Source of the DNA: a virus
Lineage: Duplodnaviria; Caudoviricetes
Virus record (IMG/VR): IMGVR_UViG_3300017963_000189
Reading direction: 5' to 3' (one strand)
DNA length: 64,000 nucleotides
A model generated the notes under the pieces. The model saw nothing but the letters and a program-made list of their open reading frames with translations. It was not told the DNA's origin and did not search any database. Made by a program: the position numbers and the translations under genes. Of this stretch, positions 33,722-63,113 are shown piece after piece. The stretch's first letter is position 1. Each line of letters starts with the position of its first letter.

Positions 33722-34080
33722 TAATATTCTATCTTTTTCATTACAAATTTATATTTTGGATTTTTTCTTTCTACTTTCTTTACATATTTCTCAGGTACAT
33801 CAACATTAGATAACCCTAACATAAATGTATCTGTATCTTGATACCGTTCCCAAGCAATATATCCCTTTCTACTATCTAATGGAATATCTAACCATTGAGA
33901 TAAATGTAAATGTAATGTTTTCCACGCATCGTCAACAACATATAAATCTCCGTTAGGCATACTCATTCCTCTCAACCCAGGTTCCATTCTTCTAATAGAT
34001 TTAGGGTTTTTATATACGTCAAATTCATCGAAAATTTGACCAATTAAATCTTCTTTTATTAATTTTTTTAACTTAATCAT
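33721..34080 (-). CDS. Small protein with class A leader MIKLKKLIKE (putative head cargo)
   Basis: 119 aa; start/stop overlaps with both neighbours. Confidence 0.7.
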   Translation of the reverse strand: MIKLKKLIKEDLIGQIFDEFDVYKNPKSIRRMEPGLRGMSMPNGDLYVVDDAWKTLHLHLSQWLDIPLDSRKGYIAWERYQDTDTFMLGLSNVDVPEKYVKKVERKNPKYKFVMKKIEY

Positions 34081-35357
34081 TCAAATTTACCCCACGTTAC
34101 TATTTCATCGTCACTCGTTAGCGCGTATCCTAAACTACCGGTGTCGGCGATAACTACAAACGCACTTCCACTTTGTTTTATTGTAAAAGCATCATGTTCC
34201 ATATATTGACCATTTATAAATACCAAAAAATCATCTTCGTCAGTTGGAGTCATTGTAGATGTACTCGGTAAATCAGATGGAATTGACGCTGTGTATACAT
34301 TTGGATAAGTTACTATTGATTCTCCTACACTTGAACTCACCACCGTTGATCCCACCGTTGTAAATGATGAATATACTGCTAATTTATTTTGGTAATTCAC
34401 TTGATGTTGTAATTTCAATATTTTAGCATCAACCATATCCGATATTGTTTGATTACCACTTACTGCTGGTTGTTTTCTTGACGAAACAATAATCTTTTCA
34501 CAAAATGGATCAGGTTGTGTTACACTCAATACGTCTACTTCCGTTTCCGTATCTAAAATTATTTGTTGTGTTGTATACGTCTTTTGAGTTGTTATTAAGT
34601 CATTCGCCTCTTCCGGAATCAAAAATCCTTGTATATCTAAAGTAAAATTAGACCTAACCATTCTACCCTTTTCCGTACTCAACTCCGTATTCATGTCAAA
34701 ATTGTCGATCTTAGCTTTAAACTTAAACTTTTCATCGTCGCCCCAATAATCGCCCTCGGCGAACTGCATTTGCTCAACAATCTTGTTCATTTGGGTTACA
34801 AACGATGTCCATATAATACACTCATACGTTATAATAACATAGTCCGGTACAACAATGTTATACATTTCATATGTTGGTTTTATATTATTTTTTAACGAAA
34901 ATCTATCATACTTGTTATGTTCGTTTGACCACTTTTTAGGAAAATAATGAACTAAATTCCGGTCAACCTTGTCAATAGGTATATTATCATCACGACCTAC
35001 ATTTGTACGACGGTACATTACAATAGGTGCTATGATCTTCCCTTTACGATCACGTAAATAACCATCCTTTTGAGATGAAACCCACATCTCAGGATCGCCA
35101 TATTTGATCGGAACATCTATCAATATTCCATTCTCTAATACTCTCGGTTTTATTATATTTTTAAAGTAAAAAATTATCGCTTCATCAATGTCTTGTAAAC
35201 CAATGGAAATATCTTTAAATGTATCATCACTTCGTTTTATTTGTTCTTCGCGTTTTTCACGAGCGGGTTTACCAGAATACCTGAGTGTTCCGTCAAAATT
35301 TTCCCTTCTTGTTCTTGGCAAAGGTTTTTGTCTTTTAGGTGTGTTACTAATAGCCAT
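34077..35357 (-). CDS. gp15: Tail completion/terminator-like protein (gp15-like), paralog 2 with C-terminal extension
   Basis: LQDIDEAI.FYF, VP.KYGDPE.W, QKDGY.RD.KGK, PDY..TYE..IWTSFVTQMN motifs; position after neck genes; extra ~150-aa C-terminus (FLVFINGQYME). Confidence 0.6.
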   Translation of the reverse strand: MAISNTPKRQKPLPRTRRENFDGTLRYSGKPAREKREEQIKRSDDTFKDISIGLQDIDEAIIFYFKNIIKPRVLENGILIDVPIKYGDPEMWVSSQKDGYLRDRKGKIIAPIVMYRRTNVGRDDNIPIDKVDRNLVHYFPKKWSNEHNKYDRFSLKNNIKPTYEMYNIVVPDYVIITYECIIWTSFVTQMNKIVEQMQFAEGDYWGDDEKFKFKAKIDNFDMNTELSTEKGRMVRSNFTLDIQGFLIPEEANDLITTQKTYTTQQIILDTETEVDVLSVTQPDPFCEKIIVSSRKQPAVSGNQTISDMVDAKILKLQHQVNYQNKLAVYSSFTTVGSTVVSSSVGESIVTYPNVYTASIPSDLPSTSTMTPTDEDDFLVFINGQYMEHDAFTIKQSGSAFVVIADTGSLGYALTSDDEIVTWGKFE

Positions 35358-36202
35358 TATTTCATATCCTCAGCACTTACAACAGTTTCTACTCCAAGAA
35401 CTACTTGTTGTTTTGTTCGTGTCTTTTGTGTCGTTACTAAATCGTCATATGTTTCCGGTATCAAGAATCCATTTATCAATAATGTAAAGTTTGACCTTAC
35501 TAATCGACCTTTCTCCGTATTCACATCTACATTTTGATCAAATGAATCTATCTTTGACCTAAATTTATATTTGTTTTTGTCGCCCCAATAGGCGCCTTCA
35601 CTGTATACAAGCTGTTCCACTATCGAATTCATTTGGGTTACAAATGATGTCCAAATTATACTCTCATATGTCACAGTTATATAGTCAGGTTGGATCACGG
35701 TGAAAACCTCATATTCCTTTTTCCTGTCTATACCGGTCAATAACGAAAATCGATCATATGAATTTTTCTTAGACCACTTTTTAGGAAATTGGTGTACTAT
35801 ATTCCTATCCGTTTTGTCCACGGGCATCCCGTCGTCACGAGCAATGTTCGTCCTACGTACCATTATGATTGGCGAAATCATTTTACCCTTCTTGTCTCGT
35901 ACATACCCATCCTTTTGTGTCGCTCGCCATAACTCCGGATCGCCGTACTTCACCGGTACGTCAATGATTTCTTCATTCTCAATGACAGTTGGTTTTATGA
36001 CATTCTTGAAATAAAATAGGATCGCCTCGTCAATGTCTTGAAGTTTTATGGATACATTTTTGAATGTATCATCACTTCTCTTGACTTGTTCTTCTCTTCG
36101 GTGGGGCACAGGTGGATTGTCTATGTCTTTGTGATATTCGTGCTCGCCCAAACGAGTCTTGACTAAAGGATTTTGTCTTTTTGGAGTTTTATCAATCGCC
36201 AT
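35357..36202 (-). CDS. gp15: Tail completion/terminator-like protein (gp15-like), paralog 1
   Basis: 281 aa; same motifs as 34077-35357 across its full length. Confidence 0.6.
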   Translation of the reverse strand: MAIDKTPKRQNPLVKTRLGEHEYHKDIDNPPVPHRREEQVKRSDDTFKNVSIKLQDIDEAILFYFKNVIKPTVIENEEIIDVPVKYGDPELWRATQKDGYVRDKKGKMISPIIMVRRTNIARDDGMPVDKTDRNIVHQFPKKWSKKNSYDRFSLLTGIDRKKEYEVFTVIQPDYITVTYESIIWTSFVTQMNSIVEQLVYSEGAYWGDKNKYKFRSKIDSFDQNVDVNTEKGRLVRSNFTLLINGFLIPETYDDLVTTQKTRTKQQVVLGVETVVSAEDMK

Positions 36203-40258: not shown

Positions 40259-40303
40259 AACTTTACTCCTTTTAAGGTTTTTTCTTTTCTCAATCAACAT
40301 TAT

Positions 40304-40343
40304 AAATATACGAAATTTCAGAGTAAATGTCAACTGTTTTCTG
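40304..40343 (-). promoter_or_regulatory. Early sigma70-type promoter
   Basis: TTGACA (40328-40333)-17 nt-TATATT (40305-40310); 37/40 identical to 303-342. Confidence 0.85.
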
Positions 40344-40460: not shown

Positions 40461-42098
40461 TTAAACTTGATCAATATGACCCACATATATCTTCCCGTAA
40501 AATTCTGGCCTTACGATTTTCTTCGCGTAACGAGTCATAACGCCTCTGCGAGGAGTAAAATTATCAGGATCATAAATCAATGGAGTCATAATAAGTGGAA
40601 TGTAAGGTGAATACACAGCACCAGTTTCCAAGAAATTACTTCCTCTAAATCCGACCAAAGCGATATTTTCAGTAAGGTAAGGATTTTTGTAAACGGTGAA
40701 ACGTGAATTCAACATACCAACTTTTTGTACACCCATTGCGAATGATTGTTGGTTTCCATCAGTATCAGCAGCATATCCAGGAATAGATTCAATAACGGTA
40801 GCAACGTCAGGACTAACAACGATGAAGTTAGCTCCACCGCGAAGTGTTAATTGATGAATTTTGTTACTTACTTTTTGAATCTTATTTCCAAGAGTTTGAT
40901 ACCATTCATTCTTTGTACCAGTATGAGAACCAGCATCATAGAAATTGGTTTTACCATTGTTAATTTCATATCCAGGAAGAGCTGACCAGTAATCAGTAGT
41001 AATAGCGTTAGAAATAAGCATGTCAAGGATTTCTAAGTCAATTTCCATTCCAATATATTCACTCAAGAGAGCAGTTAACTCAGCTTCAGCGTCAATAGAG
41101 TGATATGCGTTCAAGTCTTGAGCCAATTCAGGAGTCCAAATAGCTTTCAACTTACGAGTTTTGGCGACGATAGGTTCTTGAGCAACCGACAAGTCGATTT
41201 CAGGAATATCAAGTTTAACAAGACTTCCAGACTCAGAAGTATCTTCGAAGTCACCACGAGTATCAGCAGTAGGTTGTTTGTGATAACGAATATCATATTC
41301 ACTTGCTGAGAAGTTAGCGAATGCAGCAGCACTACCAGAAACGATCCATCTTACTGTAGCACCAACTTGAGTTGTGTAAGCAGACAAATAAGATTGAATA
41401 CCACTACCACTAACAGAAAAAGCACGAACACCTTCGACATCAAGGTCAGATAAGTTACCAGTGTTATATGAAAGAGCGAAAAGTGTACCGGCAGCCATAG
41501 AAGCACTAATATGACCATCGTCAAAACCAACATCAGCCCATGTGACAGAAGCAGTAGCGAAAGCGTCACCACTTGGAGTAGTATCAAGATCAGCAGTTCC
41601 GCCATATCCATAATCATTAATTGAGTATCCGAAACGTCCACCACCGTAAAGACCACCAGTAGCTTCATCAGTCGTTCCAGGAGTTTTACCACCACCAGTT
41701 CCACCAAAAACAGATTGATTTTGGGTAAAACCAGGTTGTGTACCACTACCATACTTAAAGTCAATGTAAAATACAAGACCGGATGGTAAGTTCATAGGTT
41801 GAATCGATACGAATTCTTTAGCGGCAACTTCACCGAAAATTCTACGTACCAAAGGAAGAGCGACACCAGACCATTGTTCAGCACCACTACCACCAGTTTG
41901 AGAAACTTCGTCCAATAATTGGCGAGCTTGATTCTCTAATAGAATAGCCATTCCATAAATTTCATGTTCTTCGTTCATACCATCAAGAAGACCTGTTGGC
42001 TCCCATTTTTTCACGAGTCCACGAGTTTGCTCTAAAAGAGCATCATATGGATTTTGACCTTCCATTAATTTGTTTAAATTAAATAAGGTTTTACTCAT
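40461..42098 (-). CDS. gp23: Major capsid protein (T4 gp23-like)
   Basis: 545 aa; IQPMNLPSGLVFY, TRKLKAIWTPELAQDLNAYH, YSPYIPL, PRRGVMTRYA motifs. Confidence 0.97.
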   Translation of the reverse strand: MSKTLFNLNKLMEGQNPYDALLEQTRGLVKKWEPTGLLDGMNEEHEIYGMAILLENQARQLLDEVSQTGGSGAEQWSGVALPLVRRIFGEVAAKEFVSIQPMNLPSGLVFYIDFKYGSGTQPGFTQNQSVFGGTGGGKTPGTTDEATGGLYGGGRFGYSINDYGYGGTADLDTTPSGDAFATASVTWADVGFDDGHISASMAAGTLFALSYNTGNLSDLDVEGVRAFSVSGSGIQSYLSAYTTQVGATVRWIVSGSAAAFANFSASEYDIRYHKQPTADTRGDFEDTSESGSLVKLDIPEIDLSVAQEPIVAKTRKLKAIWTPELAQDLNAYHSIDAEAELTALLSEYIGMEIDLEILDMLISNAITTDYWSALPGYEINNGKTNFYDAGSHTGTKNEWYQTLGNKIQKVSNKIHQLTLRGGANFIVVSPDVATVIESIPGYAADTDGNQQSFAMGVQKVGMLNSRFTVYKNPYLTENIALVGFRGSNFLETGAVYSPYIPLIMTPLIYDPDNFTPRRGVMTRYAKKIVRPEFYGKIYVGHIDQV

Positions 42099-42128: not shown

Positions 42129-43250
42129 TTACTTTTTGTTGTGATTAATAAGTTTGTGAATGCGGCTTTTCACTTCATTATCTTCATTGACGATTTGTTC
42201 TTTATCAACTTTCTTTTCAGAATCAGTTGATTGAACAACAGAAGAAGCACCTTCAACTAAACGTTGTGTTCTTTTGTTTTCTTTCTTTTCGCCAACCGCA
42301 AGGTTTTCCATAAGTGTAGCAAAAATAAGTTTTACTTCACGTACATTCTTAGCACGATCAAAATTCTCAATGACTTTAACCTTGGCTTTGTTGTCAAGAT
42401 TATAACCACGAAATACTTTATTCGTGAAAAGAAGTTTTGCATTCAAAATGTTCGTTTCGTTAATGACTTTACGTTGTTTTTTGATTGCAGATACAGCTTC
42501 ACCAAGTTGAGCTTTAAGTTCAGCTATTTGATTTTCAAGAGCAGCAATTTGTCCAGGATAATCGATTTCATCAGCTTCATCAACAAGACCTTCTAAGTCT
42601 AATTCTTCATCGTCCTCAACTTCATCTTCAACTTCAGGTTCTACTTCAACTTCAGGTTCTACATCAACTTCAGGTTCCGCTTCAACTTCGGCTTCAGGTT
42701 CAACTTCAATGTCAAGTTCTTCATCTTCGTCGTCGTCTTCTGTTACTTCCATTTCCATTTCATCTTCCGGTTCCATTTCCATTTCTACCTCGTCGTCAAC
42801 TTCAACTTCATCGTCGGCTTCTTCTTCTAATTCACTAATAACGGAATCAAGATCAAAATCCTCGTCCAACTCAACATCTTCAGTCAATCCAGAATCTTCT
42901 TGAGCTTTTTCACCAGCTTTAACTTCAGTTTCACCACCAGGATCTTCAGTAGTTTCTTCAGAAGAGGCTTTTGAAGGCTCTTTGTTATCACCTTGTCCAA
43001 TATCAGACGAATCTGCAACTTCCTCTAAAGATTCATCTTCAGTGAGACCGGAATCTTCTTGAGCCATTTCAAATTCTTCCTCTAATTCGACATCTTCCTC
43101 AACTTCATCCATCTCGGATTGAATTTTTTTGGTGATGACAGAATGAATTTGCGGTTCAAACGCTTCTTCAAGAGCAGCTTTAGCTTGTGCTACAGCCATT
43201 TCTCTCATAGCTTTTGCGTCTGCAATCGCTTCTTTAATTAAATTACTCAT
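42129..43250 (-). CDS. gp22: Prohead scaffold/core protein (gp22-like); probable start MSNLIKE at 43250
   Basis: Extremely acidic with EPEVEV repeats and a duplicated AQEDSGLTED; coiled-coil C-terminus; directly upstream of MCP; SD GGAG before 43250. Confidence 0.8.
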   Translation of the reverse strand: MSNLIKEAIADAKAMREMAVAQAKAALEEAFEPQIHSVITKKIQSEMDEVEEDVELEEEFEMAQEDSGLTEDESLEEVADSSDIGQGDNKEPSKASSEETTEDPGGETEVKAGEKAQEDSGLTEDVELDEDFDLDSVISELEEEADDEVEVDDEVEMEMEPEDEMEMEVTEDDDEDEELDIEVEPEAEVEAEPEVDVEPEVEVEPEVEDEVEDDEELDLEGLVDEADEIDYPGQIAALENQIAELKAQLGEAVSAIKKQRKVINETNILNAKLLFTNKVFRGYNLDNKAKVKVIENFDRAKNVREVKLIFATLMENLAVGEKKENKRTQRLVEGASSVVQSTDSEKKVDKEQIVNEDNEVKSRIHKLINHNKK

Positions 43251-43377: not shown

Positions 43378-43405
43378 TATAAATATATAGAAAAAAGCGA
43401 AACGT
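43378..43405 (-). promoter_or_regulatory. Candidate late promoter (ACGTTTCG-N12-TATTTATA) for scaffold-capsid operon
   Basis: Same two elements and 12-nt spacing as 2791-2818 and 3178-3205. Confidence 0.6.
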
Positions 43406-43445: not shown

Positions 43446-43769
43446 TTATTTTAAAGAGTCCGTTTTAGAAATATTACCTTTACCAATAGTACCTTTTACT
43501 ACTACAGCGTTTCCTTTAGGAGTTATTTCTAAACCCTTTGGTTTTACGTGATGAATAACTATATCACTTTTCTTTTTCGCCAATCCTTTTTTCATGGCGG
43601 CCATGATCGCGTCCTCTTTTGATTTCGCTAACCAAATGTTCTTGTCCTTCGTCTTTGAAGAATCTAATGGAAGTTTTACATCACTTGTAGTTCCATGATA
43701 CAGCGTCGCTTCGTTTAAAAATTTATTAACTTCCTCTTTAATGATTTCTTTGAGTCTTTCCATTTTCAC
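43446..43769 (-). CDS. Class B leader plus ADP-ribosyltransferase-fold (Tpt1/KptA-like) small domain
   Basis: Leader KMERLKEIIKEEVNKFLNE then ATLYHGT...IWLAKSKEDAI...IVIHHV; GTG start with SD GGAG. Confidence 0.55.
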   Translation of the reverse strand: MKMERLKEIIKEEVNKFLNEATLYHGTTSDVKLPLDSSKTKDKNIWLAKSKEDAIMAAMKKGLAKKKSDIVIHHVKPKGLEITPKGNAVVVKGTIGKGNISKTDSLK

Positions 43770-43782
43770 TTTATTTCTCCAA

Positions 43783-44025
43783 TTATAATGATTGTCGCCG
43801 TGTCTCGTGTCTCTGACGAGCCTTAGCTTTAGAAAGTTTGTCTCGTTTGATTGCAGATGGTTTTGTGTATTGTTGTGTCTTTTGTATGTCCAACATTAAC
43901 TCACTATCTTTTATTATTCTCTTTAATTTCTTTAACGCATACTCTAAGGCTCGATCCTTATCAATCTTTTTATTTAATTCAACATAATAACCTCTTAACC
44001 GTATGTTATCTACATTCTCTGGCAT
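43783..44025 (-). CDS. rpsU: Phage-encoded ribosomal protein bS21 homolog
   Basis: LEYALKKLKR...ELMLDIQKTQQYTKPSAIKR..KAKARQR matches the bS21 pattern (LExALRRFKR...xYEKPSxKR). Start placed at ATG 44025 after SD AGGAGGT; alternative start 44058. Confidence 0.8.
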   Translation of the reverse strand: MPENVDNIRLRGYYVELNKKIDKDRALEYALKKLKRIIKDSELMLDIQKTQQYTKPSAIKRDKLSKAKARQRHETRRQSL

Positions 44026-44069
44026 AATACCTCCTGTTGTTTTGCTTCTTTGTGACATTTATATTACCT

Positions 44070-44372
44070 TTATTTTTTTAATCCTCGTGCTAATTCACGA
44101 TAAAATTTTGCTATTTTTTGAGCAGCCATAATGTCAAGAGACGCAAAAGCATCATGATAATCACTACTTTTAGGCTCCCTACTCGGCAACGCAGCAATTA
44201 ATTTTTCTTTCATTTCATCAGTATCATTTTGATCTAATAAATCAGTTACTGATACTATATCGTCAGCTATTCTTAATAAATAACTACTCACCACTCCAGC
44301 TACTCTATCAACTTTATCTTCCGTTATTAGAGTATTCTCATTTAAAATCTTGTTCCATTGTTCTTTTTTCAT
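44070..44372 (-). CDS. Class C leader (MKKEQWNKILNENTLITE) helical cargo protein
   Basis: 100 aa; leader shared with 51160-51414 and 51424-51633. Confidence 0.7.
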   Translation of the reverse strand: MKKEQWNKILNENTLITEDKVDRVAGVVSSYLLRIADDIVSVTDLLDQNDTDEMKEKLIAALPSREPKSSDYHDAFASLDIMAAQKIAKFYRELARGLKK

Positions 44373-45286: not shown

Positions 45287-47098
45287 TCACTTTTTTTTCG
45301 TAAATTTCTTGATTTTCCCTTTTAAAATATTAACTAATTTATCTATATCTTCCTCAGTTTTTATCTTTTTCTTTGTTCCATATAATAACTCGGCATCAGA
45401 TCGTCCTCTCTTATCAGTACCAACAACCGCTATTTCTACCTCAACAATATTACCATATATTGATACATCCAACACAGTTTTCCAATCATCCGATTGTATA
45501 GATGTCCCTTTACCAGGAACTAAAGTTAAATTCCAACCTCTTTTTCCATAACGTCTAATTTTATTGTCTAATGTCTTTAGTTTTTTATCTAAAAGAGTAC
45601 CTATTCTTCTTTCACTTAATTCATTTTCTTCTGTTACTAATGTATTCTCTTTTAACTTATTTGGTTTAAACTGTATTCGTTGTCTCATTTTTCCTGGATA
45701 TGGTTCTAATTCAAGTGTATAACTACCATCATTGTTTTTATGTAACCACACACCATCATGTCCAGTCCCCAAACCAAAACCAGCTTTATTTAATTTAGCA
45801 ACCAACTTACCAGCATTCTTTAATGTCAATTCACCTTTAGATACCACTACTTCACCATCACCATTATCAGCAACATATTTAGACGCTTCATTCATCATTA
45901 TTTCTTTCACTACACTACGAATAACTTCTTTTATTTCGCCCATCATCATTTCATCATGGCGAAAATCTATGTACGCTTCCATACTTGGTTGATCATCAAT
46001 TTCACCGGATTGAATGTACATCAATGTATCTTTAGCTAATTCCTTCATTTCCTTAGCGTTATATTTATACTTTTTCTTAGCATACTTGAGTCCATCTTTT
46101 ACCATATCCTTGTCAGATTTGATTTCATTCACTCCCTCTCTGCGGGCTTTCTCTCCAGCAGATGCTTGAGCAAAATGTTTGTATTGTTTTTTAGTCATTC
46201 CACCTTTTTTACCACCTTTTTCTCCAGCACTGGCTTTAGCAAAATGTTTGTATTGTTTTGGAGTCATTTTTTCGTCAAGTATGTCGCCTTCTTTTAACTC
46301 GGATAAATCGGGCGCGTATATCATTTGAAACTTTGATCCAGGATTTTTTATCCGGTCTGCTTTCATCCTCGTCAAACAAGTATTCTTGGACGCAATACAT
46401 TGTACCACTCCATCACGAGTATATCCGTATTCAGCGTCAGTTGGTAAATCAGTTACAGTATTTTCCTCAACACTCTCTTTTATAGTTTTCAACATATCAA
46501 CAGGAATTACCATTTCACTACCCTTCATATGTCCAGTCAATATTTCAACATCGGCTAATTTGTCAGTCGAATAATTCATAATTCTTCCAGTGTCGCCTTT
46601 CAAACTTGTAAAGTTCTTAAAAAATTGTTTTGGAATATATTTCGATGTTACTTTATATATTTTTACTTTATCTCCGATACCTTCATTCATTGTACTCTCC
46701 TTTACAAGTAAATCTGCATTGTTGATATATCCTTTTTCTTTTCCAACTTTTACTATAGCGTACCCGCTCGCTGGAGCTTCGTCACTTACTTTACCCATTT
46801 TACCTTTATGTTTTCCATACATTACTTTAACTTTCGATCCAACAGGTATTTCACTATCAGGATATTCCTTAGAATAGTTTATCCAACCTTCATTTACACT
46901 CTCAGGAACTTCCTCAGGTAATCCCTTATGTTTTGTCTTAGCAAACTTTTCAGTATCCTTGTCTTTCATTGTTTTAGCAATACCTTTGATTTTATCCTGC
47001 AACGCCTTAGGAAGTTTACCCATTTCTAACTCACCCTTTTCATAGGCATGTACCATACCCATTAATCGTTGCTGCGATTTACTCACTGCTGGACACAT
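45287..47098 (-). CDS. Putative polyprotein of about 7 small basic modules
   Basis: 603 aa; modules bounded by SVNE, TMNE, SVEE, ILDE, GVNE, MMNE, ELSE; includes two KOW/SH3-like units and an N-terminal PAVSKSQQRLMGMVHA module. Confidence 0.7.
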   Translation of the reverse strand: MCPAVSKSQQRLMGMVHAYEKGELEMGKLPKALQDKIKGIAKTMKDKDTEKFAKTKHKGLPEEVPESVNEGWINYSKEYPDSEIPVGSKVKVMYGKHKGKMGKVSDEAPASGYAIVKVGKEKGYINNADLLVKESTMNEGIGDKVKIYKVTSKYIPKQFFKNFTSLKGDTGRIMNYSTDKLADVEILTGHMKGSEMVIPVDMLKTIKESVEENTVTDLPTDAEYGYTRDGVVQCIASKNTCLTRMKADRIKNPGSKFQMIYAPDLSELKEGDILDEKMTPKQYKHFAKASAGEKGGKKGGMTKKQYKHFAQASAGEKARREGVNEIKSDKDMVKDGLKYAKKKYKYNAKEMKELAKDTLMYIQSGEIDDQPSMEAYIDFRHDEMMMGEIKEVIRSVVKEIMMNEASKYVADNGDGEVVVSKGELTLKNAGKLVAKLNKAGFGLGTGHDGVWLHKNNDGSYTLELEPYPGKMRQRIQFKPNKLKENTLVTEENELSERRIGTLLDKKLKTLDNKIRRYGKRGWNLTLVPGKGTSIQSDDWKTVLDVSIYGNIVEVEIAVVGTDKRGRSDAELLYGTKKKIKTEEDIDKLVNILKGKIKKFTKKK

Positions 47099-47111: not shown

Positions 47112-47672
47112 TTATCTTACACTATTTACAAGTTTATACGCTTGTTTCAACGCTTTAGCTGCGTGTTTAGCACTTTGAAATACTTCGTAATCTTCACCAA
47201 TGTTTACCAACTCATTCAATCCATCTTCAACATCGGCTAATAGATTTTTGTAGTATTTGTAATCAGGTTTTTCTTTCTCTTGTAATGGCTGTCCTTGTTC
47301 ATCAAGAAATTTTTCGCCTTTTTCATTAAATTGTCCAGGAAGTCCTTTAAACTCAAAATTATCTTCCCTTTTTGGCGACAATCCTACAACTTGACCCACT
47401 GGTAATAAACTTGAAATCATTACCATTCCTTCATCTAACTTTTCTTTTTTAGATGTTTTGTTTTCACCTACATTTTCTTTTAAAGGTTGTATTACATCAA
47501 TAGGTACAACAATCGTAGCACCTTTCCATTCACCATCTAACATTTTAATGGTTACAGAATCTTCAGGTTGAACTACTCCAGAATCACCTACAAATTTTTT
47601 AAAAGTGCTTCCCGAAATCTTCCCTTTGGCGCGATGAATTTTTACTTTATCACCGGGTTTAAATTTAGCCAT
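47112..47672 (-). CDS. Three-module putative cargo protein (KOW/SH3-like + LDE-bounded repeat + helical)
   Basis: 186 aa; N-terminal module similar to a module of the 603-aa ORF; middle module duplicated in 47686-48375. Confidence 0.7.
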   Translation of the reverse strand: MAKFKPGDKVKIHRAKGKISGSTFKKFVGDSGVVQPEDSVTIKMLDGEWKGATIVVPIDVIQPLKENVGENKTSKKEKLDEGMVMISSLLPVGQVVGLSPKREDNFEFKGLPGQFNEKGEKFLDEQGQPLQEKEKPDYKYYKNLLADVEDGLNELVNIGEDYEVFQSAKHAAKALKQAYKLVNSVR

Positions 47673-47685
47673 TTAATTTCTCCAT

Positions 47686-48375
47686 TTATTTAAAAGGTTG
47701 TATCTTTCCTAATTTTGACATTTCTTTTTCAAATGCTTTAAAAGCATCTTCAACTGTTTTTTCAATTTTCTTCGGATCGGCTTCTTTCATTTTGATAGTC
47801 CACGTATGATCATTACCAAAACCAAAACTAACTTGATAATAATCCCAAAGTTTTGTTATTCGAACAGGAAAATATGTATTTATTATATTTTTTGGACGAG
47901 GGCTTAAATATTCAGTATCCCTTTTTTCGTTTATAGTTTCTTCCTCAATCTTATTACCCATTTCATCTAATACCTTTACGCCTTCTTCGTTGAATTGACC
48001 AGGTAATCCCTTAAACTCAAAATTGTCTTTTCGTTCTGGCATTAAACCAATGACACCACCAACAGGTAAAAGGCTCGACATCATTACCATACCTTCATCA
48101 AGTTTTTGCTTACTTTCACTTACAACTTTTTTCGCAGCAGCAAGCACATCTTTTTGATTTGTTTCAATCTCCTTTACAGCAGCTACAAAGAATTTTTGAG
48201 CGACACCCTTTTCACTCTTAGCTTTTTTCTTCGCTTCCTCATACATATCAAGAAACATCTGTGACGCTTCTTTTTTGTCTTTAGCTTTCTCAATACTCTT
48301 TGCACGAATTGTCCAATCTTTAGTCAATTTTGCTACAGTAGCAATATCTTTAAAGAATCCTTCATCTAATTTCAT
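47686..48375 (-). CDS. Three-module putative cargo protein
   Basis: 229 aa; MKLDE start; shares the LDEGMVM...FEFKGLPGQFNE...LDE module with 47112-47672. Confidence 0.7.
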   Translation of the reverse strand: MKLDEGFFKDIATVAKLTKDWTIRAKSIEKAKDKKEASQMFLDMYEEAKKKAKSEKGVAQKFFVAAVKEIETNQKDVLAAAKKVVSESKQKLDEGMVMMSSLLPVGGVIGLMPERKDNFEFKGLPGQFNEEGVKVLDEMGNKIEEETINEKRDTEYLSPRPKNIINTYFPVRITKLWDYYQVSFGFGNDHTWTIKMKEADPKKIEKTVEDAFKAFEKEMSKLGKIQPFK

Positions 48376-48916: not shown

Positions 48917-49525
48917 TTATTCTCCCATATCTATAAGAATATCAGTTACGATTTCTTGTACTTTACAATATTTGTTTACACATACTTGACCATACTTATC
49001 AACACTTTCTTGAATAGGTTTCATAAACGCACCGTGTGTCGATGGATTACTTACCATATCAAAAGCAATCAACTCAAAATCGTCTTGGACGACCGCACCA
49101 TGTTCAGCAGATTCTTGAACCGATCCCAACCCACGAGAAGAAATACCTACAAGAATACCACCTTTCAATAATTCTTGAAGAATTTTTCCTGCAGGAGTAT
49201 TCAACACTTCTATTGTACCGATTAAGTCTTTACCTTCCCAATGCATTTCAACTATATTATGACTTACATTAGCTAAGTTTACGACAGAAGAATCGGGATG
49301 ATCTAACTCACCCAATGCTCGTTTTTCGCCAATCAACTGTTCATATTTTTTCGCTTCCCTGGCGAGAATAGGTTGTGGATATACACGACCATTTTGATTT
49401 TGTGCTTCTGCTCGTTGTAATATACCCTTGATCAAAATCTTACCATTGTGTACTTTCATTGATTCTCGTATTACACCACCCGCTATTTCTAAAGGCATAT
49501 ACTCCGCTAATATCTGCTTATTCAT
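48917..49525 (-). CDS. gp21: Prohead core protease (T4 gp21-like)
   Basis: NQNGRVYP, LGELDHP, VSHNI, GISSRGLGS, DFELIAFDMVSNPS motifs. Confidence 0.95.
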   Translation of the reverse strand: MNKQILAEYMPLEIAGGVIRESMKVHNGKILIKGILQRAEAQNQNGRVYPQPILAREAKKYEQLIGEKRALGELDHPDSSVVNLANVSHNIVEMHWEGKDLIGTIEVLNTPAGKILQELLKGGILVGISSRGLGSVQESAEHGAVVQDDFELIAFDMVSNPSTHGAFMKPIQESVDKYGQVCVNKYCKVQEIVTDILIDMGE

Positions 49526-49541
49526 TCTTTATTCTCCACTA

Positions 49542-50198
49542 TTATTTTATAGGTTTTTTCAAATTTTTCAAGGCTTCTTGTTTCGCTTTAATATCGTTTT
49601 CTAAATCTTTTATTGTAGAATTTAAATCACTTTTATTTGATTCAAGAGCAGTATACCAACTACCTTTTTTACCAATTTTTTCAAGAGATTCATTCCGTGT
49701 ACGAGCATATACAGCAAACAAAGGAGTTCCCATACTATTGCCTTCCATATCACTTTGATATATCAAAAATAATTTTTCAGGAACTACTTTTGGATCAATC
49801 TCAACTAATTCATCATCAGAAAAACTATATCTATAAACATTTCCTTTCTTTCCATTAAATAAATATACATCTCCGTAATCTTTATTCCTTTTCGCTTGAG
49901 AAAATAAAGATTTGATTTTATTTCCCGCAAATTCTACATACCAATCGGCTAATACACCAACTTCTTTCGGCTTTCTTGTTCTTGGATTACCATAATTTTT
50001 CCAATTATCCATAGTCCAATCTGATACATCCAAGTTAGGAGTATTCTTTAGAGCATCCAAAAATTTATCTCTATTTTTCAAAGTAAGTTTGACGGCTTTC
50101 TTACCATATTTCTTAAAAAACGCACCACCAACATTTTCATTCAATAAAAAATTTTGAACTTCCTCTTTAATTATTTCATTCAATCTTGAACGTTTCAT
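49542..50198 (-). CDS. Class B leader (MKRSRLNEIIKEEVQNFLLNE) cargo protein
   Basis: 218 aa; basic globular body with C-terminal coiled coil. Confidence 0.7.
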   Translation of the reverse strand: MKRSRLNEIIKEEVQNFLLNENVGGAFFKKYGKKAVKLTLKNRDKFLDALKNTPNLDVSDWTMDNWKNYGNPRTRKPKEVGVLADWYVEFAGNKIKSLFSQAKRNKDYGDVYLFNGKKGNVYRYSFSDDELVEIDPKVVPEKLFLIYQSDMEGNSMGTPLFAVYARTRNESLEKIGKKGSWYTALESNKSDLNSTIKDLENDIKAKQEALKNLKKPIK

Positions 50199-50207
50199 TT
50201 TTTCTCC

Positions 50208-50585
50208 TTATACCCACATTTGACGTTTCTTAAATAAATCAAAAAAGACGGCAGCAATCTCGGCTCGTATTATATCTTTAATCTCTGCAAAATCTTTTCT
50301 ACTCAATGCTTCATCTAATCTTTGTTGTTGTAATTGTCTTTCCTCATAAAGAATAAGTAAATTGTTGTCTAACTCCGCTACCGTCTTATTTTTATCATAC
50401 CATGTAAAACCATGCACCTCTTTTTCTTCGTCAGTATATTTTACTTTCATTCTTTTAAGTTGTTTAAGAGCTTCTGCTTTGTCTTTTACTCTAATAAATA
50501 CTTTACCTTGAGAAGGCAATCCCTTAAACTCTTTTATCATTTCTTCACGAATAATTTCTTTTATTCTATCTTTTGAAATTTTCAT
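50208..50585 (-). CDS. Class B leader (MKISKDRIKEIIREEMIKE) two-module protein
   Basis: 125 aa; second module after QRLDE (ALSRKDFAEIKDIIRAE...KKRQMWV). Confidence 0.7.
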   Translation of the reverse strand: MKISKDRIKEIIREEMIKEFKGLPSQGKVFIRVKDKAEALKQLKRMKVKYTDEEKEVHGFTWYDKNKTVAELDNNLLILYEERQLQQQRLDEALSRKDFAEIKDIIRAEIAAVFFDLFKKRQMWV

Positions 50586-50589
50586 ATCT

Positions 50590-51153
50590 TTACCTTATCT
50601 TTTTGGCGGCCGCATTCATTTTACCTGAATCCAACACTTGTTGTATCAAATGATATGTATCTAATGGATTAGCATATCCAAGTTTTTTATGTTCCGTACT
50701 TAAAAAATCTAATATGTCTTTCCTTACTTGATTTAGTGTTTCGCCAGTGAAATGTAATTCATTGACCCTCTCACCACCTAAATTATCCTCACCAGGTTCC
50801 TCAGTCAAATCTATTAAATCCCACGACATAGGCCAGTTGTATTTTATGTTCTTTATCTTTTCACCACTTAATCGGGCTGCTTCATCTCGTTTCATTGTCG
50901 TTGTCGGTGTGTGAATGTTTCCACCTTTGTAATACTCGCCCGTTGTCTTTCGTTGTAATAAATAATATTTATTCTTATCAACATCAATACTATTTGGAGT
51001 CATTTGTTGCCCAACTGGCTTTATCGCTTCTTGTCTAATTTTAGGATTAAGAAGTTCTTTCATTTTTATAGGATTTTCATTCAATCTATAATATGTTGAA
51101 CGATCATACGCATCCTCTTTTCCTAACATTTTATACCAAAGTTTTTTATCCAT
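50590..51153 (-). CDS. Class C-like leader multi-module protein
   Basis: 187 aa; MDKKLWYKML leader; internal RLNE, IRQE, DLTE, RVNE. Confidence 0.65.
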   Translation of the reverse strand: MDKKLWYKMLGKEDAYDRSTYYRLNENPIKMKELLNPKIRQEAIKPVGQQMTPNSIDVDKNKYYLLQRKTTGEYYKGGNIHTPTTTMKRDEAARLSGEKIKNIKYNWPMSWDLIDLTEEPGEDNLGGERVNELHFTGETLNQVRKDILDFLSTEHKKLGYANPLDTYHLIQQVLDSGKMNAAAKKIR

Positions 51154-51159
51154 TTCGTT

Positions 51160-51414
51160 TTATCCCTTTTGAGCATCCATTATACGAGCCCTTACCCATT
51201 CTTGTAATTCTCTAAGCATTAACAACTTGATCATTTTATGATCATATGGTACATTCACTCTTTTTTTGATAAAATCCATTTGTTTCATTTCAGCTTTAAC
51301 CGCAGCATTTATCACTTTATTTAGAACTTCTTTAGCAGCTTTCGCATCATGATTTTTATCTTCACTAACTAAAGTGTTTTCATTTAATATTTTGTTCCAA
51401 GTTTTTTTATCCAT
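51160..51414 (-). CDS. Class C leader (MDKKTWNKILNENTLVSE) cargo protein
   Basis: 84 aa; first 15 aa identical to 51424-51633. Confidence 0.75.
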   Translation of the reverse strand: MDKKTWNKILNENTLVSEDKNHDAKAAKEVLNKVINAAVKAEMKQMDFIKKRVNVPYDHKMIKLLMLRELQEWVRARIMDAQKG

Positions 51415-51423
51415 GATTCTTCC

Positions 51424-51633
51424 TTAAAAAGTAATTTCAATTTTCTTAGGCTTATTTTTCATTTTTTTTATTAACGCAACTAACTTATCATATAATTTTT
51501 GATCGTGATCGTGTTTTTTATCAGATGTATTATTAAAAATAATAACTGTACCTTGATAAGACGCAACAAAATCATTCCCACCTTCATTTAAAGTATTTTC
51601 ATTTAAAATTTTATTCCAAGTTTTCTTATCCAT
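51424..51633 (-). CDS. Class C leader (MDKKTWNKILNENTLNE) cargo protein
   Basis: 69 aa; body unrelated to the neighbour that shares its leader. Confidence 0.75.
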   Translation of the reverse strand: MDKKTWNKILNENTLNEGGNDFVASYQGTVIIFNNTSDKKHDHDQKLYDKLVALIKKMKNKPKKIEITF

Positions 51634-52757
51634 TAGAATCTCCGTATCTTATTAATGATCCTTGTCATTTTTTCATTTATCTTGTTCAAGGCTCTATGAG
51701 TATTTTTCCAATATTTTTGTGAATCAATTCCGGTCTCTTGTTTCAAACGAAGATTCAAGTCAATCGTTTTTTCTATCGATTCAAGTTGATTTCTTACGTC
51801 TCTAATGGCGACACCGATTTTTTGTTTGTTGTTCATTGTATCATCGTCACGATAATTTTGATAAGCTCCACGGCGACCCTCTTTGACCACTTTTATTACT
51901 TGACCAGAAGAATCTTCTACAGATATTTTAGCCCCTTTGTTATCCTTTTTCATCACACTAATAACATCGTCTATCTCTTTGTGATCAGTTGTATGAAATT
52001 GATCCACTACCTTATTATTCTTTATAGCAACTATTGAATAACTTTTTCTCGCTTCATTTACACTTTCATTCGTTGATCCCATATATGATTTTATTTCATT
52101 TAAAAAATAAGTTAAATCGGACAACTCAGCTAATCCCCAACTCTCATTTCGCCGTCTCGCTAAATTTAACTTTTTAATATAAGAATCTAACTTTTTCATC
52201 ATTCCTTTTTTGTCGGCTTTCGCTTCATTTATAATACCTTCCTCTAACTTGTCGCCACCACCGGTAAATGGACGCTTACCACCAAAATTACCAAAATCTT
52301 GTTTATCAGATTGAGTTACTTCTTGATATAATTCAATCGTTATTTCTTCATTCAATCCACTTCTTACTTTCATTTCAGCAAACTTCTTACGATATACTAA
52401 TGATTCTTTACGAGCATTTGCTAAATCTTCCCAATCCCGATCCTCAGGATCATTTACAAGTTTATATCCAAGTTGTTGTGAAATTTCCCTTGTCCTATCC
52501 TTCAAACTCTTGGCGAAAGCATATGGAGTTTGGTATCCATCTTGACCGCCCATGGCAGTTACTGAACTCACTTCGTCAAGTTCTTCATCTTTTCGTTTAT
52601 CACACGTTTCATTCTTTTCACATTTCTCACACGGCGTTCCACATTCGCCAATATCACATTTATCTTTTTCCTCGTCCTCAATGTCAAATTGATCCATTTC
52701 TTGTTCAATCATTGTTCGTATCAATTCACGAATATCACTTTCATTTAAATTAGCCAT
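51633..52757 (-). CDS. Putative polyprotein (probable start MANLNE at 52757)
   Basis: SD AAGGAG before 52757; class B-like leader; Cys cluster; modules bounded by ELDE, GLNE, IINE, SVNE, VVKE; C-terminal coiled-coil module QKIG...YWKNT. Confidence 0.7.
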   Translation of the reverse strand: MANLNESDIRELIRTMIEQEMDQFDIEDEEKDKCDIGECGTPCEKCEKNETCDKRKDEELDEVSSVTAMGGQDGYQTPYAFAKSLKDRTREISQQLGYKLVNDPEDRDWEDLANARKESLVYRKKFAEMKVRSGLNEEITIELYQEVTQSDKQDFGNFGGKRPFTGGGDKLEEGIINEAKADKKGMMKKLDSYIKKLNLARRRNESWGLAELSDLTYFLNEIKSYMGSTNESVNEARKSYSIVAIKNNKVVDQFHTTDHKEIDDVISVMKKDNKGAKISVEDSSGQVIKVVKEGRRGAYQNYRDDDTMNNKQKIGVAIRDVRNQLESIEKTIDLNLRLKQETGIDSQKYWKNTHRALNKINEKMTRIINKIRRF

Positions 52758-53667
52758 TGACTTTCTCCTTGTTAGGACAATCAACAACTTTTTTGACTTC
52801 TTTCAATAACTCAAAATATCTCATAAGTTGAACAAGTTGTTCTTCACTTACTACTTTACCACGTTTTAGTTTTTCAATGTTTGGTATAACACCTTCAACT
52901 TTTATTTGAGTCGCCTTATCTTCTATTTTAGGAATAAGTTGTGTTACTTCATCATTCACTCTATCAACTTCAGCATCAACGTATTCACGGAATTGATTTG
53001 TGTTTGACACATTATAGATATATTCACGAAGTAAGTTCTTTTGAGCAGAATCTAAACCATCGTATTTCTCATTGAATTTTTCAGTCATAGTTTTATATGT
53101 GATCAATCTCAAATCTTCAGTCATCTTCTTATATTCTTCGATAGCTTTATCATTTTCACTAACTTCAGGTTTAGTAGGTTGAGTTTGTGTTCCAATGATA
53201 TGTTCTATAAGAGTTGATTGACATTGAACTTTTTCGGCAGGTGGCAACTCACCATCTTCAGATGTAGCTGCTTCGAAAAGCTGATATATGGATGCTAAAT
53301 TTTTGTAATTAGGTAATTTACTCCTAAAAAATTCATCCACATTATAATTTTCTTTAATCTCTTTAATAAGATTATATTTTTCTTTACGTAAAGATGTATT
53401 GTTGATCTTCTTACGAGAATCAATAGATTCACTAATTAAATCTTTTGCTCGATTTTCAGATTGAAATTTGGTTTCCATTAATCCTTTGTATAAAGACAAC
53501 TCTTTAGATAATGGTTTTCCATTTCCATAATATCTTTTAATCAACTTTATCGCAAACGATTCATCGTTATCTTTACTTTCGTTTAACGCATCCGCAGTAG
53601 TTTGTCTTACTAAAAGCTCAAATAATAGTCCCGTGTTTTTGAACTTAGAATGTTTGATTCTTTTCAT
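52750..53667 (-). CDS. Helical protein downstream of portal (possible prohead core/assembly factor)
   Basis: About 305 aa starting MKRIKHSKFKNTGLLFELLVRQ; own TATTTATA motif upstream. Confidence 0.7.
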   Translation of the reverse strand: MKRIKHSKFKNTGLLFELLVRQTTADALNESKDNDESFAIKLIKRYYGNGKPLSKELSLYKGLMETKFQSENRAKDLISESIDSRKKINNTSLRKEKYNLIKEIKENYNVDEFFRSKLPNYKNLASIYQLFEAATSEDGELPPAEKVQCQSTLIEHIIGTQTQPTKPEVSENDKAIEEYKKMTEDLRLITYKTMTEKFNEKYDGLDSAQKNLLREYIYNVSNTNQFREYVDAEVDRVNDEVTQLIPKIEDKATQIKVEGVIPNIEKLKRGKVVSEEQLVQLMRYFELLKEVKKVVDCPNKEKVNG

Positions 53668-53718: not shown

Positions 53719-53726
53719 TATAAATA
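53719..53726 (-). promoter_or_regulatory. TATTTATA late-promoter core
   Basis: Intergenic between portal stop and next gene. Confidence 0.5.
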
Positions 53727-53741
53727 TAATATAATTTTCTT

Positions 53742-55616
53742 TTACTCTTTATTTTCTTCAATTTCGTCGCCAGAACCACTATTTTCGGTTATTTCTTGTC
53801 CTTCATCAACAAAATAGTTTTCTAACTTCTTAAAATCCACTTCCGTGATAACTTTTTTTGTTGTTAATATTTCTTTACCAAAAGCAGCTTCAGCTTTCCG
53901 TTTATTTCTTTGTAAATGTTTCTTTTTATTGGCGTCATATCCAACATCTTGATCCAATTTCATAATGTTTTGATAATCTTTTTTACCTATTGGATCATCA
54001 CCAAATGGATCATCTTTTTTTCTTGTTCGAGCATTCCCGCTTTTACGACCATCTTCCGACGGCTTCACAGGAACATATTCTTTTTCTTCATCGAATTGTA
54101 AATTAAAGTTTTTATTCTCACCAAATTGATCAGGATTACTTCCACCAAAACCTTGATCACTTTCAGCGGGATCATTACCCTCGTCCTCAATTTGTTGTAA
54201 TCTATAAACTCTCTTTTGATCGTCAATGACACCTTTCTTTTCTTCGGCGATTTCATCTTCCGTCATCTTCCATACATTTTTGTAAATCCAATTATCACTC
54301 AACATTTTCAAATCTTTTATATCTCTCGCCAAACTTGTTTTTGAATTCCAAATCTCGATTTTTTCTTGTTCGTAAATCGTAGATGGATTTGTTAACTCAA
54401 TCTCAAAATCAACTAAATCATTACCCTCAAATCCTTGAATGTATAAATGAACAAGGGCGACCTTTGTAAGCTCAGATACGATAATTTTTTGAATTCTCTC
54501 TATCGTTCGAGCAAATCGAACATCCTCAGCAGCCAACGTCGCTTTTCCACCGACTTCTTCCTCATATCCCAAGAACGCTTTAGGAATTTTAAGGGCAGCC
54601 ATTAACTTGTTTCTCAAGTATTCAATATCATCTATTTGACCATCATTTGACAAACCACTCAAAGAATCAATGTCAGTTCCACTATCCCCACCACGAACAG
54701 GAAGATAAAAATCTTCCGTCATATTTTGAAGATTGAACTTTAAGTTATATTCGCCAGTTTGTGGATCAATGTAAGGAACTTTCTTAACTTGTGAAATAAT
54801 CTTTTTCATGTAGGCGTCAACTTCATTCGGAGCAATATTTCCTACATCAACTTTAAAAATTCTTCGTTCAGGAGCTCTCATGATTCTATGAATCAACATA
54901 GCATCTTCCATAAGAATTAATTGTTTCCAAACCCTACGACCTGGCTCAATCATTGATTTTCCATATGGTAAAAAGTTTGAATCAGTCATCATTCTAAAAT
55001 GAGCAACTTCAAACATTTCCAATTCAGCCTTTCCGCTCGGCCCCTCAACTACAAATTGAACCGCAGTTGGTTTATTTGGATCAGCACCTTCCACACGTTT
55101 TACATCATAAACAGGTAATGGTAAAACATTCACTACTCCAAACTTTTCTGCTAACTCTAATTGTAAATAATAATCACCATATTTACACATTCCCCTTATC
55201 CATGTTGGTAAGGTGAATTCTACATTCATAATATCATAAAATAAATTCTCTAACACTTTTCTTACATTAGAACTTCCAGCTTTAATTCTAATCATGTCGC
55301 CCATTTCATTCTTCGTTGTCGTTTCTTCAGAATAAATGTCAAGTGCTGACGCTATGATCGAATCACTGTCCATAACTTCATAATCACGAAATAACTGCAG
55401 ACGCTGTGCTTCCATTCCATATAACGCTTGTTGTTGACGAAGGGCGTAATTAACGGTTGAATACATCCTCGTGAATTTATCATTACGATGTGTCAAACCA
55501 AATCGTTGTATTTGCCCAGTATCAACAACCTTGAGTTGTTTTCCACCAATATTGCGAATAACAACATCGGAAGAAAACATCTTTTTTAATTGTGCAAATA
55601 ATTTGTTGTCTGCCAT
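53742..55616 (-). CDS. gp20: Portal vertex protein (T4 gp20-like)
   Basis: LMEDAMLIHRIMRAPERRIFKVDVGN, EDFYLPVRGG, IDDIEYL..KL..ALKIPKAFL motifs. Confidence 0.97.
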   Translation of the reverse strand: MADNKLFAQLKKMFSSDVVIRNIGGKQLKVVDTGQIQRFGLTHRNDKFTRMYSTVNYALRQQQALYGMEAQRLQLFRDYEVMDSDSIIASALDIYSEETTTKNEMGDMIRIKAGSSNVRKVLENLFYDIMNVEFTLPTWIRGMCKYGDYYLQLELAEKFGVVNVLPLPVYDVKRVEGADPNKPTAVQFVVEGPSGKAELEMFEVAHFRMMTDSNFLPYGKSMIEPGRRVWKQLILMEDAMLIHRIMRAPERRIFKVDVGNIAPNEVDAYMKKIISQVKKVPYIDPQTGEYNLKFNLQNMTEDFYLPVRGGDSGTDIDSLSGLSNDGQIDDIEYLRNKLMAALKIPKAFLGYEEEVGGKATLAAEDVRFARTIERIQKIIVSELTKVALVHLYIQGFEGNDLVDFEIELTNPSTIYEQEKIEIWNSKTSLARDIKDLKMLSDNWIYKNVWKMTEDEIAEEKKGVIDDQKRVYRLQQIEDEGNDPAESDQGFGGSNPDQFGENKNFNLQFDEEKEYVPVKPSEDGRKSGNARTRKKDDPFGDDPIGKKDYQNIMKLDQDVGYDANKKKHLQRNKRKAEAAFGKEILTTKKVITEVDFKKLENYFVDEGQEITENSGSGDEIEENKE

Positions 55617-55652: not shown

Positions 55653-55660
55653 TATAAATA
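55653..55660 (-). promoter_or_regulatory. TATTTATA late-promoter core for portal
   Basis: About 37 nt upstream of portal ATG. Confidence 0.5.
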
Positions 55661-55685: not shown

Positions 55686-56045
55686 TTATATGTCCACTAC
55701 TTTTGTTCCGGGTTTCGGCTTAAATCCAACTTTTTTCATTACAGTTATAATCGTCAACTCTAATATATCACCTTTTTCTTTTAATATACCTACAAGATTT
55801 AGTTTTGTCCTTGAATCTCGTATAAGAATATAATCTCCAACATTTATGTTGTCGCCAATTAATTCCCGACTTATCGGCTCAATCGCTCTCTGAGCAACCG
55901 CAAGAATCTCCTTGTCAGTAATTTCCTCAGCGTGTCTAAATTGACGCTGACCGGCATGAACAGTCTTGTCTAACTCAATCGTTACATTGATCTTGCGAGA
56001 TACTTTACCAATAGATTTTTCCATAAGTTGTTTTAGTTTTATCAT
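55686..56045 (-). CDS. Class A leader plus DUF4258-like (BECR RNase-fold) domain
   Basis: MIKLKQLME leader; KTVHAGQRQFRH..EITDKEI...LTIITV pattern. Confidence 0.5.
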   Translation of the reverse strand: MIKLKQLMEKSIGKVSRKINVTIELDKTVHAGQRQFRHAEEITDKEILAVAQRAIEPISRELIGDNINVGDYILIRDSRTKLNLVGILKEKGDILELTIITVMKKVGFKPKPGTKVVDI

Positions 56046-60441: not shown

Positions 60442-60969
60442 CTATCTTACCAATTCATGATCTTTACAATATTTTATTAATTTTTGTATATCTTCATCAG
60501 GAAAATCTTTACCATATACATTTCCTGCTCTACCTTTTCTTAAAAAATTCTCAAACCCTTTGTCCACTCGACCTTGAGCAGCTTGAACAGCAAGAGCAAC
60601 ATAATTCCTCTCCGCATCGTCTAAAAGATTTCCATTACTCAATACAAAATTTCTCAACTCAGGATACGCATCTTCATAAAACTTTCCTTGTGTCTTGAAA
60701 CTAATGTTTGGTTTTTTCTCAGGTTCCTTTTGACCTGGCTCACCTTTTTCCTTTTCCTTCTCTTGTTCGGCTTCCTCGCGATCTTCCTCTTTTTCTTCCT
60801 CATGATCAAATCGTTGTTTACTCAAATCTAACTTTTGTTGTTGTATGTCAGCTTTCTGTTTCGCAATGTCCTCTTTGTCCTTATCGATTTTTTCTTTTTC
60901 ATCTTCAGGTTGTTCCATAATCCTATTTATTTCTTCTATAATGATTTCCCTTATTCTTTGTATATCCAT
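60442..60969 (-). CDS. Class B leader (MDIQRIREIIIEEINRIME) protein
   Basis: 175 aa; charged coil plus globular C-terminus. Confidence 0.7.
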   Translation of the reverse strand: MDIQRIREIIIEEINRIMEQPEDEKEKIDKDKEDIAKQKADIQQQKLDLSKQRFDHEEEKEEDREEAEQEKEKEKGEPGQKEPEKKPNISFKTQGKFYEDAYPELRNFVLSNGNLLDDAERNYVALAVQAAQGRVDKGFENFLRKGRAGNVYGKDFPDEDIQKLIKYCKDHELVR

Positions 60970-62639: not shown

Positions 62640-63113
62640 TTATATTTTACCTTCATACCCAATAGCTTTATCACCAACAACTAATTCGGCATCATCGGCA
62701 TATTTTTTATTGACAATCACTAATGTTTTTCCACCATGTTTAATTCTAAAATGAGCAACAGGTGACATAACAAAATCAATGTCCTTTTTCTTGAAAATAG
62801 CTTCTAATGGTTTTCTCATACTCATTAAAGCATTATCTTTAGCTATTTCACCAACCTTAGCAATTATCGGGTCTGTCGCCTCATTTATATTTTTATCCTC
62901 TAAAACCTCAACAATCATTTCACGAATCTCTTGACGTATCACACCCTCTTTGATTTTTTTCTTCGCCGCTGGCCACTCTTTCTTGATACGATTGAAAAAT
63001 TCACTTCTCTTGTCGCCTAATTGAACAGGTGATTTCACTTCGTATTCGTCCATAAGAGCTTTGAAAAACTCCCGGTACGCTTGTTGTAATTTACTTAACT
63101 TTACTTTCGCCAT
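62640..63113 (-). CDS. Two-module putative cargo protein with internal class B leader
   Basis: 157 aa; YREFFK...KRSEFF..IKKEW module, then IRQEIREMIVEVLEDKNINE. Confidence 0.7.
   Translation of the reverse strand: MAKVKLSKLQQAYREFFKALMDEYEVKSPVQLGDKRSEFFNRIKKEWPAAKKKIKEGVIRQEIREMIVEVLEDKNINEATDPIIAKVGEIAKDNALMSMRKPLEAIFKKKDIDFVMSPVAHFRIKHGGKTLVIVNKKYADDAELVVGDKAIGYEGKI

Follow-up and report, generated by a model that had tools for sequence, protein, structure and literature searches.

We describe a short N-terminal leader that heads small proteins with unrelated bodies in an uncultured phage clade, and which is probably a T4 CTS-type propeptide for capsid targeting, carried here by small and mostly basic cargo proteins. 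The shared N-terminus on four genes (A, B, C and D) of the window, that is, of the whole 64,000-nucleotide stretch of phage DNA analysed here, is real and well past chance, and our results support selection on the leader at the peptide level. We infer docking, cleavage, packaging and injection of the leader proteins, and the leader is most likely a new sequence version of a strategy already known from that phage.

A leader shared by genes with different bodies

The leader-bearing genes of the window lie, like all genes of the region, on the minus strand:

51424-51633, minus strand: gene B, 69 aa; leader codons 1-17 (51583-51633), ending in L-N-E
51160-51414, minus strand: gene A, 84 aa; leader codons 1-18 (51361-51414), ending in V-S-E
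50590-51153, minus strand: gene D, 187 aa; long 26-residue leader variant (51076-51153), ending in L-N-E
44070-44372, minus strand: gene C, 100 aa; leader codons 1-18 (44319-44372), ending in I-T-E
45629-45661, minus strand: internal half-leader N-K-L-K-E-N-T-L-V-T-E, the second half of the leader, at residues 480-490

The half-leader sits within a 603-aa multi-module ORF (45287-47098). Two further leader copies are found just before the window in the 168-kb genome record, L205:4026-4283 and L205:4506-4994, the latter read from an internal Met. The 384-aa gene upstream ends in a stop codon that the start of B overlaps (TAATG), A follows B by 9 bases and D follows A by 6.

A preliminary description of this DNA had proposed that A and B share a 15-aa start with synonymous DNA differences and diverge completely after VSE or NE. 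Both ORFs were confirmed at the coordinates above, and both begin with MDKKTWNKILNENTL, 15 identical N-terminal residues. Of the 45 leader bases of the two genes 41 are the same, and the four changes, in codons 3, 7, 9 and 13, are all synonymous; the probability that four random changes would all be silent by chance is 0.0006-0.003. The 45 nt upstream of the two leaders are 33% identical and the 45 nt downstream 40-47% identical, values that are background for 35% GC DNA, and nucleotide identity drops from 91% in the leader to this background at a single codon. Past residue 15 one of the two proteins reads N-E-G-G and the other V-S-E-D-K. A BLASTP alignment of A with B covers residues 1-15 and nothing beyond, so that the proposed divergence is also upheld. 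The same description had assigned a related start to C, and we find residues 6-15 of C to be the same as in A and B, the five codon changes within this core being all silent. The variant on D, a detail beyond those listed earlier, reads M-D-K-K-L-W-Y-K-M-L...L-N-E.

The bodies of A and B are both basic (pI 9.9 and 9.5 respectively). AlphaFold2 models of the two proteins are of moderate confidence (mean pLDDT 68) and have a helix at residues 3-13, linked to the folded body by a stretch with pLDDT below 50 (residues 15-20 in A and 15-18 in B). At the same moderate confidence the body of A is predicted to be a helical hairpin and that of B a beta-beta-alpha-beta fold. This difference in predicted folds suggests that the bodies are unlikely to be diverged paralogues. 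Homology of the two bodies, which the preliminary description had named as a finding that would speak against its reading, is thus seen neither in sequence similarity nor in the predicted folds, the latter with moderate confidence. In Foldseek searches of these moderately confident models, B against the PDB and A against BFVD, there was no match at E <= 0.001.

Homologue searches returned none for A, one for B and three for C, and for A no relatives were found in 5.8 billion proteins. The B orthologue, P0003, occupies the same position in the relative L206, and L15, N16 and E17 of B are invariant in three homologues. The D orthologue of L206 has N-V-N-K at the boundary instead of a Glu-ending motif. 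Pfam and PHROGs searches with A, B, C, D and ten more leader proteins gave no family over the cut-off; a Diphtheria_C match for L083:6518-6829 was below threshold (18.7 bits against a cut-off of 25) and was set aside. DNA and protein searches with the region, B and D against deposited phage genomes gave no match, and the leader is unseen in cultured phages.

A comparison of dN/dS between leader and body had been suggested as a check on selection. Between B and its L206 orthologue, the leader has a dN of 0.106 and a dS of 0.93 (ratio ~0.11), while the body has a dN of 0.35 and a dS of 0.90 (ratio 0.39). Between the leaders of A and B, which are paralogous, no replacement divergence is seen (dN 0) and silent sites are near saturation (dS 1.2), which indicates that their identity does not come from a recent copy. 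In three independent tandem pairs in relatives, the silent and replacement codon counts are 1/0, 6/3 and 8/4, silent changes being in excess in each. These results bear out the view that selection acts on the leader peptide.

The leader family and the exchange of its bodies

Public data were searched in two ways: IMG/VR and metagenome contigs with a degenerate DNA pattern, and 1.84 billion protein representatives with a leader profile of 30 columns. The profile matched 21 representatives of 41-131 aa, always at the N-terminus (in one behind eight probably mis-called residues). Together, the profile and contig scans gave 37 distinct leader proteins, all with an N-terminal leader and all from this uncultured phage clade; most are of 41-131 aa, the two longest being of 183 and 187 aa. 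All of their contigs with enough flank to be placed are syntenic with the head and terminase region of the window phage. In metagenomes the loose DNA pattern mostly found gut lipoprotein signal peptides, with M-K-K-K-K-W-N-K-I-L followed by a hydrophobic run, which were removed as unrelated.

When the leader is removed, the 37 bodies form 32 clusters without mutual similarity detectable by BLASTP or phmmer. Most bodies are of 50-100 aa, and 30 of the 37 have a pI of at least 8, the other seven being acidic or neutral. In the leader alignment M1, K3, W6 and N13 are invariant and N7, K8 and L15 nearly so. The last three leader residues are [L/I/V, rarely T]-x-E in all 37 proteins, with L-N-E the commonest form, and similarity ceases at that Glu; hydrophobic-x-Glu is a short motif that is frequent by chance in Glu- and Leu-rich proteins. 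The definition of the motif as L/I-x-E is taken from PMC9026906, and Val or Thr at P3 is a relaxed form undocumented for gp21. The boundary motif is invariant in the B and C orthologue sets despite leader indels of 13-14 residues.

L082, L083 and L081 also have tandem neighbours whose leaders are nearly identical and whose bodies are unrelated, and several bodies are found with more than one leader. D consists of the 26-residue leader fused to a body that stands alone in L001, a relative whose protease is 89% identical: there a gene of 151 aa with a start of its own encodes it, and the leader heads another ORF, of 82 aa. Orthologues of the C body in three other contigs have a 31-residue leader variant. 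In L165 a B-type body with the long 31-residue variant is located in the slot held by C in the window, and the body of L083:6833 recurs with the short variant in P0023. Gene content also varies: A is missing from the B-D interval of L206, C is missing from L001 and D is split there. The preliminary description had called the leader portable, and this is what the 37 proteins in 32 body clusters, the same bodies with other leader variants and the fusion and splitting of D all indicate.

Bodies are also found inside larger proteins, as in the following gene:

62640-63113, minus strand: 157-aa protein; C-terminal module, residues 79-157, after an internal I-N-E junction (62880-62900)

A stand-alone, leader-headed gene, L082:720, has a body 71% identical to residues 79-157 of this protein, in which the I-N-E junction is preceded by a stretch like a second leader class (see below). 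In the 384-aa protein encoded upstream of B, residues 238-290 have a weak likeness to the B body that starts from an x-N-E motif (E 2e-4, in a single comparison).

Leaders within one genome tend to be of one variant, as in A, B and C of the window and in the tandem pairs of L082 and L083, while orthologous bodies in other genomes bear another. The leaders may thus be in concerted evolution or may coevolve with a genome-specific docking site of the prohead core. We tentatively consider, as a possible but doubtful reading, that the evolving unit is a cargo module flanked by prohead-protease sites. Such modules would shift between stand-alone genes tagged with the leader, genes that have a leader of another class, and polyproteins of several modules.

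The head module and a proposed capsid-targeting role

The leader genes are surrounded by the following head genes:

53742-55616, minus strand: portal protein, T4 gp20-like (Portal_T4, 1.3e-69); upstream boundary of the head module
51633-52787, minus strand: head-module gene, 384 aa, upstream of B
48917-49525, minus strand: prohead protease, T4 gp21 family (Peptidase_S77, 4.7e-30)
42132-43250, minus strand: scaffold-like protein, highly acidic, just upstream of the capsid gene, which is the gp22 position; assigned from position and composition
40461-42098, minus strand: major capsid protein, T4 gp23-like (Pfam Gp23, 1.5e-79)

The protease also matches phrog_207, head maturation protease (3e-55), and the T4 gp21 structure 5JBL (9.7e-18); its catalytic His (in G-E-L-D-H-P) and Ser (in S-S-R-G-L-G-S) are present and are invariant in 12 relatives. 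It is presumably the enzyme that removes the leader. The scaffold-like protein has conserved ends in five relatives and no family match, and is presumed to be the core where the leaders or the basic cargo attach. By capsid protein, the closest named relatives are Microcystis phage Mel-JY01 and Flavobacterium phage immuto (51-54% identity). A search for terminator-like sites between the leader genes and the protease and head genes found none.

The CTS concept dates from work on T4 in the 1990s. In that phage the CTS is a leader of 10 residues, MKTYQEFIAE (PMC8442874), which suffices to load internal proteins into the prohead core (PMC9026906, PMC8442874, PMC3012670, PMC12373910). It is found on IPI, IPII, IPIII and Alt and is removed by gp21 (Mullaney and Black 1996, reviewed in PMC9026906, PMC3012670, PMC12373910), which cuts after L/I-x-E; residues 4 and 7 of the CTS serve targeting, and residues 8 and 10 processing (PMC9026906). 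The T4 internal proteins are basic (PMC8442874), and in Ip1-3 the leader is the sole shared part (PMC12373910, PMC3012670).

The likeness to the leader studied here is in several features: a short shared leader with a hydrophobic-x-Glu end, small, mostly basic and unrelated bodies, a gp21-family protease in the same head module, and genes that are polymorphic among related phages. The propeptides of IPII and IPIII are identical, as are the leaders of A and B, and the spacing W6-I9-L10-E12 here corresponds to Y4-F7-I8-E10 in T4, a match that is our own reading. The pattern hydrophobic-x-x-hydrophobic-hydrophobic-x-Glu is found in the first 22 residues of 27 of the 173 ORFs of the genome, compared with 5.3 +/- 2.2 in shuffled proteins. 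The T4-like spacing, the Glu-ending site and the enrichment of this pattern together lead us to read the leader as a CTS-type propeptide.

There are also differences from T4. Sequence homology of the leader to the CTS is undetectable, and the two have no residue in common but the Glu, so we propose the same mode of action and do not claim membership by descent. At 17-31 residues the leader is 1.7-3 times longer than the ~10 residues of the CTS, it has a second Glu-ending motif 5-14 residues past the first, and orthologous bodies swap at least four length variants of it. The head gene cluster contains most of the copies. A further comparison is with the inner-head proteins of giant phages (SPN3US, and also phiKZ and 201phi2-1), where gp53 and gp54 of SPN3US have identical first 15 residues (PMC5694885). 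These large phages have a large internal proteome and identical N-terminal 15-mers on diverged head proteins, and a diverged gp21 homologue cuts after Glu, like the cut proposed here. However, gp53 and gp54 are genuinely paralogous (34% identity) and have propeptides of more than 100 residues and an A/S-x-E motif, whereas the leaders here are short and the bodies unrelated.

The gp21-family protease and the cut motif at the leader end point to targeting and cleavage by the following route. The amphipathic N-terminal helix (M-D-K-K-x-W-[N/Y]-K-[I/L/M]-[L/F]...) would dock the new protein on the scaffolding core of the prohead. Once the shell is closed, the gp21-family protease would cut after the Glu, at E17 in B, E18 in A and C, and E26 in D. 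The mature protein, small and mostly basic, would remain in the head, from which it would probably pass into the host along with the DNA. Bodies could be quickly gained, lost and swapped among slots and phages while the leader is kept constant, and we suggest that this fast turnover is possible because the address is separable from the cargo.

Other roles for a conserved N-terminus should be weighed against this. It could be a retained helix, for oligomerisation, DNA-binding or docking to the portal or scaffold, or a propeptide that only keeps proteins inactive until it is cut. The head-module location and the conserved amphipathic helix fit these roles equally, and the genes for the T4 core proteins gp67 and gp68 are between the portal and protease genes, like A, B and D here. 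We consider this unlikely, since a retained helix leaves without explanation the invariant Glu-ending motif that stands exactly where conservation stops, within a predicted floppy linker, and the same bodies are also found behind internal cut-motif junctions without this leader. The leader might instead be the recognition tag of another enzyme, for example a radical-SAM enzyme, or of a sorting system, or an import signal for another compartment. This is improbable given that it terminates in a protease motif and that all genes with it have head and terminase genes around them; the six leader genes are all in the 168-kb record, which has no Radical_SAM match, adjacent to them or elsewhere.

Plain tandem duplication would make A, B, C and D paralogues, with bodies diverged past recognition and only the N-terminus kept. 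The adjacency of A, B and D and the recurrence of tandem pairs in relatives are what duplication would give, but we find it very improbable on several grounds: the drop in nucleotide identity at one codon, the different predicted secondary-structure classes of A and B, the 32 clusters among 37 proteins, and the recognisable homologues that individual bodies have with other leaders or with none. A leader dS of ~1.2 also means old copies whose protein is unchanged. We give least credence to conservation at the nucleic-acid level, as a translation-initiation or regulatory RNA element or a recombination linker in which the peptide is incidental. Homologous recombination between conserved ends would promote the exchange of cassettes, and exchange of this kind is observed; yet the differences concentrate at silent positions, to saturation, with the peptide unchanged, and the upstream ribosome-binding regions are unrelated.

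T4 internal proteins of the CTS type inhibit the restriction systems of the host. Should the leader work as we propose for a CTS-type propeptide, the orphan bodies would by the same token be candidate anti-defence proteins, and the leader with its Glu-ending motif would be a sequence rule for proteins that are packed in the head and probably injected, in a group of uncultured, environmentally widespread T4-like phages. The natural leader swaps would serve as a ready-made blueprint for a packaging tag in this group. The concept itself is unchanged by our results, whose worth is in the swaps of leader variants, the exchange of modules between stand-alone and internal positions and the size of the putative cargo set.

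Other leader-like starts and repeats in the region

Two other classes of leader-like starts were seen:

43446-43769, 49542-50198, 50208-50585 and 60442-60969, minus strand: second leader class; also internal in 62640-63113, residues ~58-78
33374-33721, 33721-34080 and 55686-56045: third leader class; also beyond the window end, at 73286-78096 on the scale of the window

The second class, R-L-K-E-I-I-K-E-E-V...L-N-E and variants, is found on otherwise unrelated head-module proteins and also in the relatives L001, L004 and L208. It has the identical hydrophobic/x/x/hydrophobic/hydrophobic/x/Glu spacing and a second Glu-ending motif. The third class is the decapeptide M-I-K-L-K-K-L-I-K-E, with the exact length and spacing of the T4 CTS. 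It shares the Glu-ending cut motif with the leader studied here but belongs to a different sequence family, is of 10 residues only and is partly on large enzyme-like proteins. Beyond the window it heads large proteins, one with a D-M-D-G-V nucleotidase-like motif; these may be packaged enzymes, or the N-terminus may have another meaning in them. If all three classes work, about one ORF in six would encode capsid cargo, far above T4.

In the cultured phage immuto (L207), the ORF at 18340-18567, of 75 aa and located after the protease gene, starts with W-Q-A-K-F-L-K-E-S-T-I-Q-E, and those at 10730-11731 and 11731-12030 start with ...F-L-x-E-N-K-L-T...L-L-K-E. As a cultured relative with leader-like starts, immuto could be an experimental model.

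Between C and the scaffold gene is a 91-aa gene (43783-44058) whose homologue in L208 is recorded as Ribosomal_S21, which makes it a phage bS21 gene within the head module. The head module of L208, a close relative, also has five homing-endonuclease-like genes (NUMOD3, DUF559 or GIY-YIG-type matches) between head genes, which the window lacks. Two pairs of adjacent genes have sequence in common. The products of 47112-47672 and 47686-48375 share a 119-residue module that begins at L-D-E-G-M-V-M (49% identity, E 8e-29), while the remainder of each protein differs; in L001, L004 and L208 this module heads separate small genes. Those of 34077-35357 and 35357-36202 are paralogues, 62% identical over the first 275 residues (E 5e-129), the former having an extra C-terminal part of ~150 residues.

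The motif TATAAATA is found at 25 sites in the window, compared with 10.5 +/- 3.3 expected, for example at 53719-53726, 55653-55660, 43378-43385 and 40301-40308. Several copies precede minus-strand head genes, in the short gaps there, and read T-A-T-T-T-A-T-A on the coding strand; TATAAATA may be a late-promoter motif.
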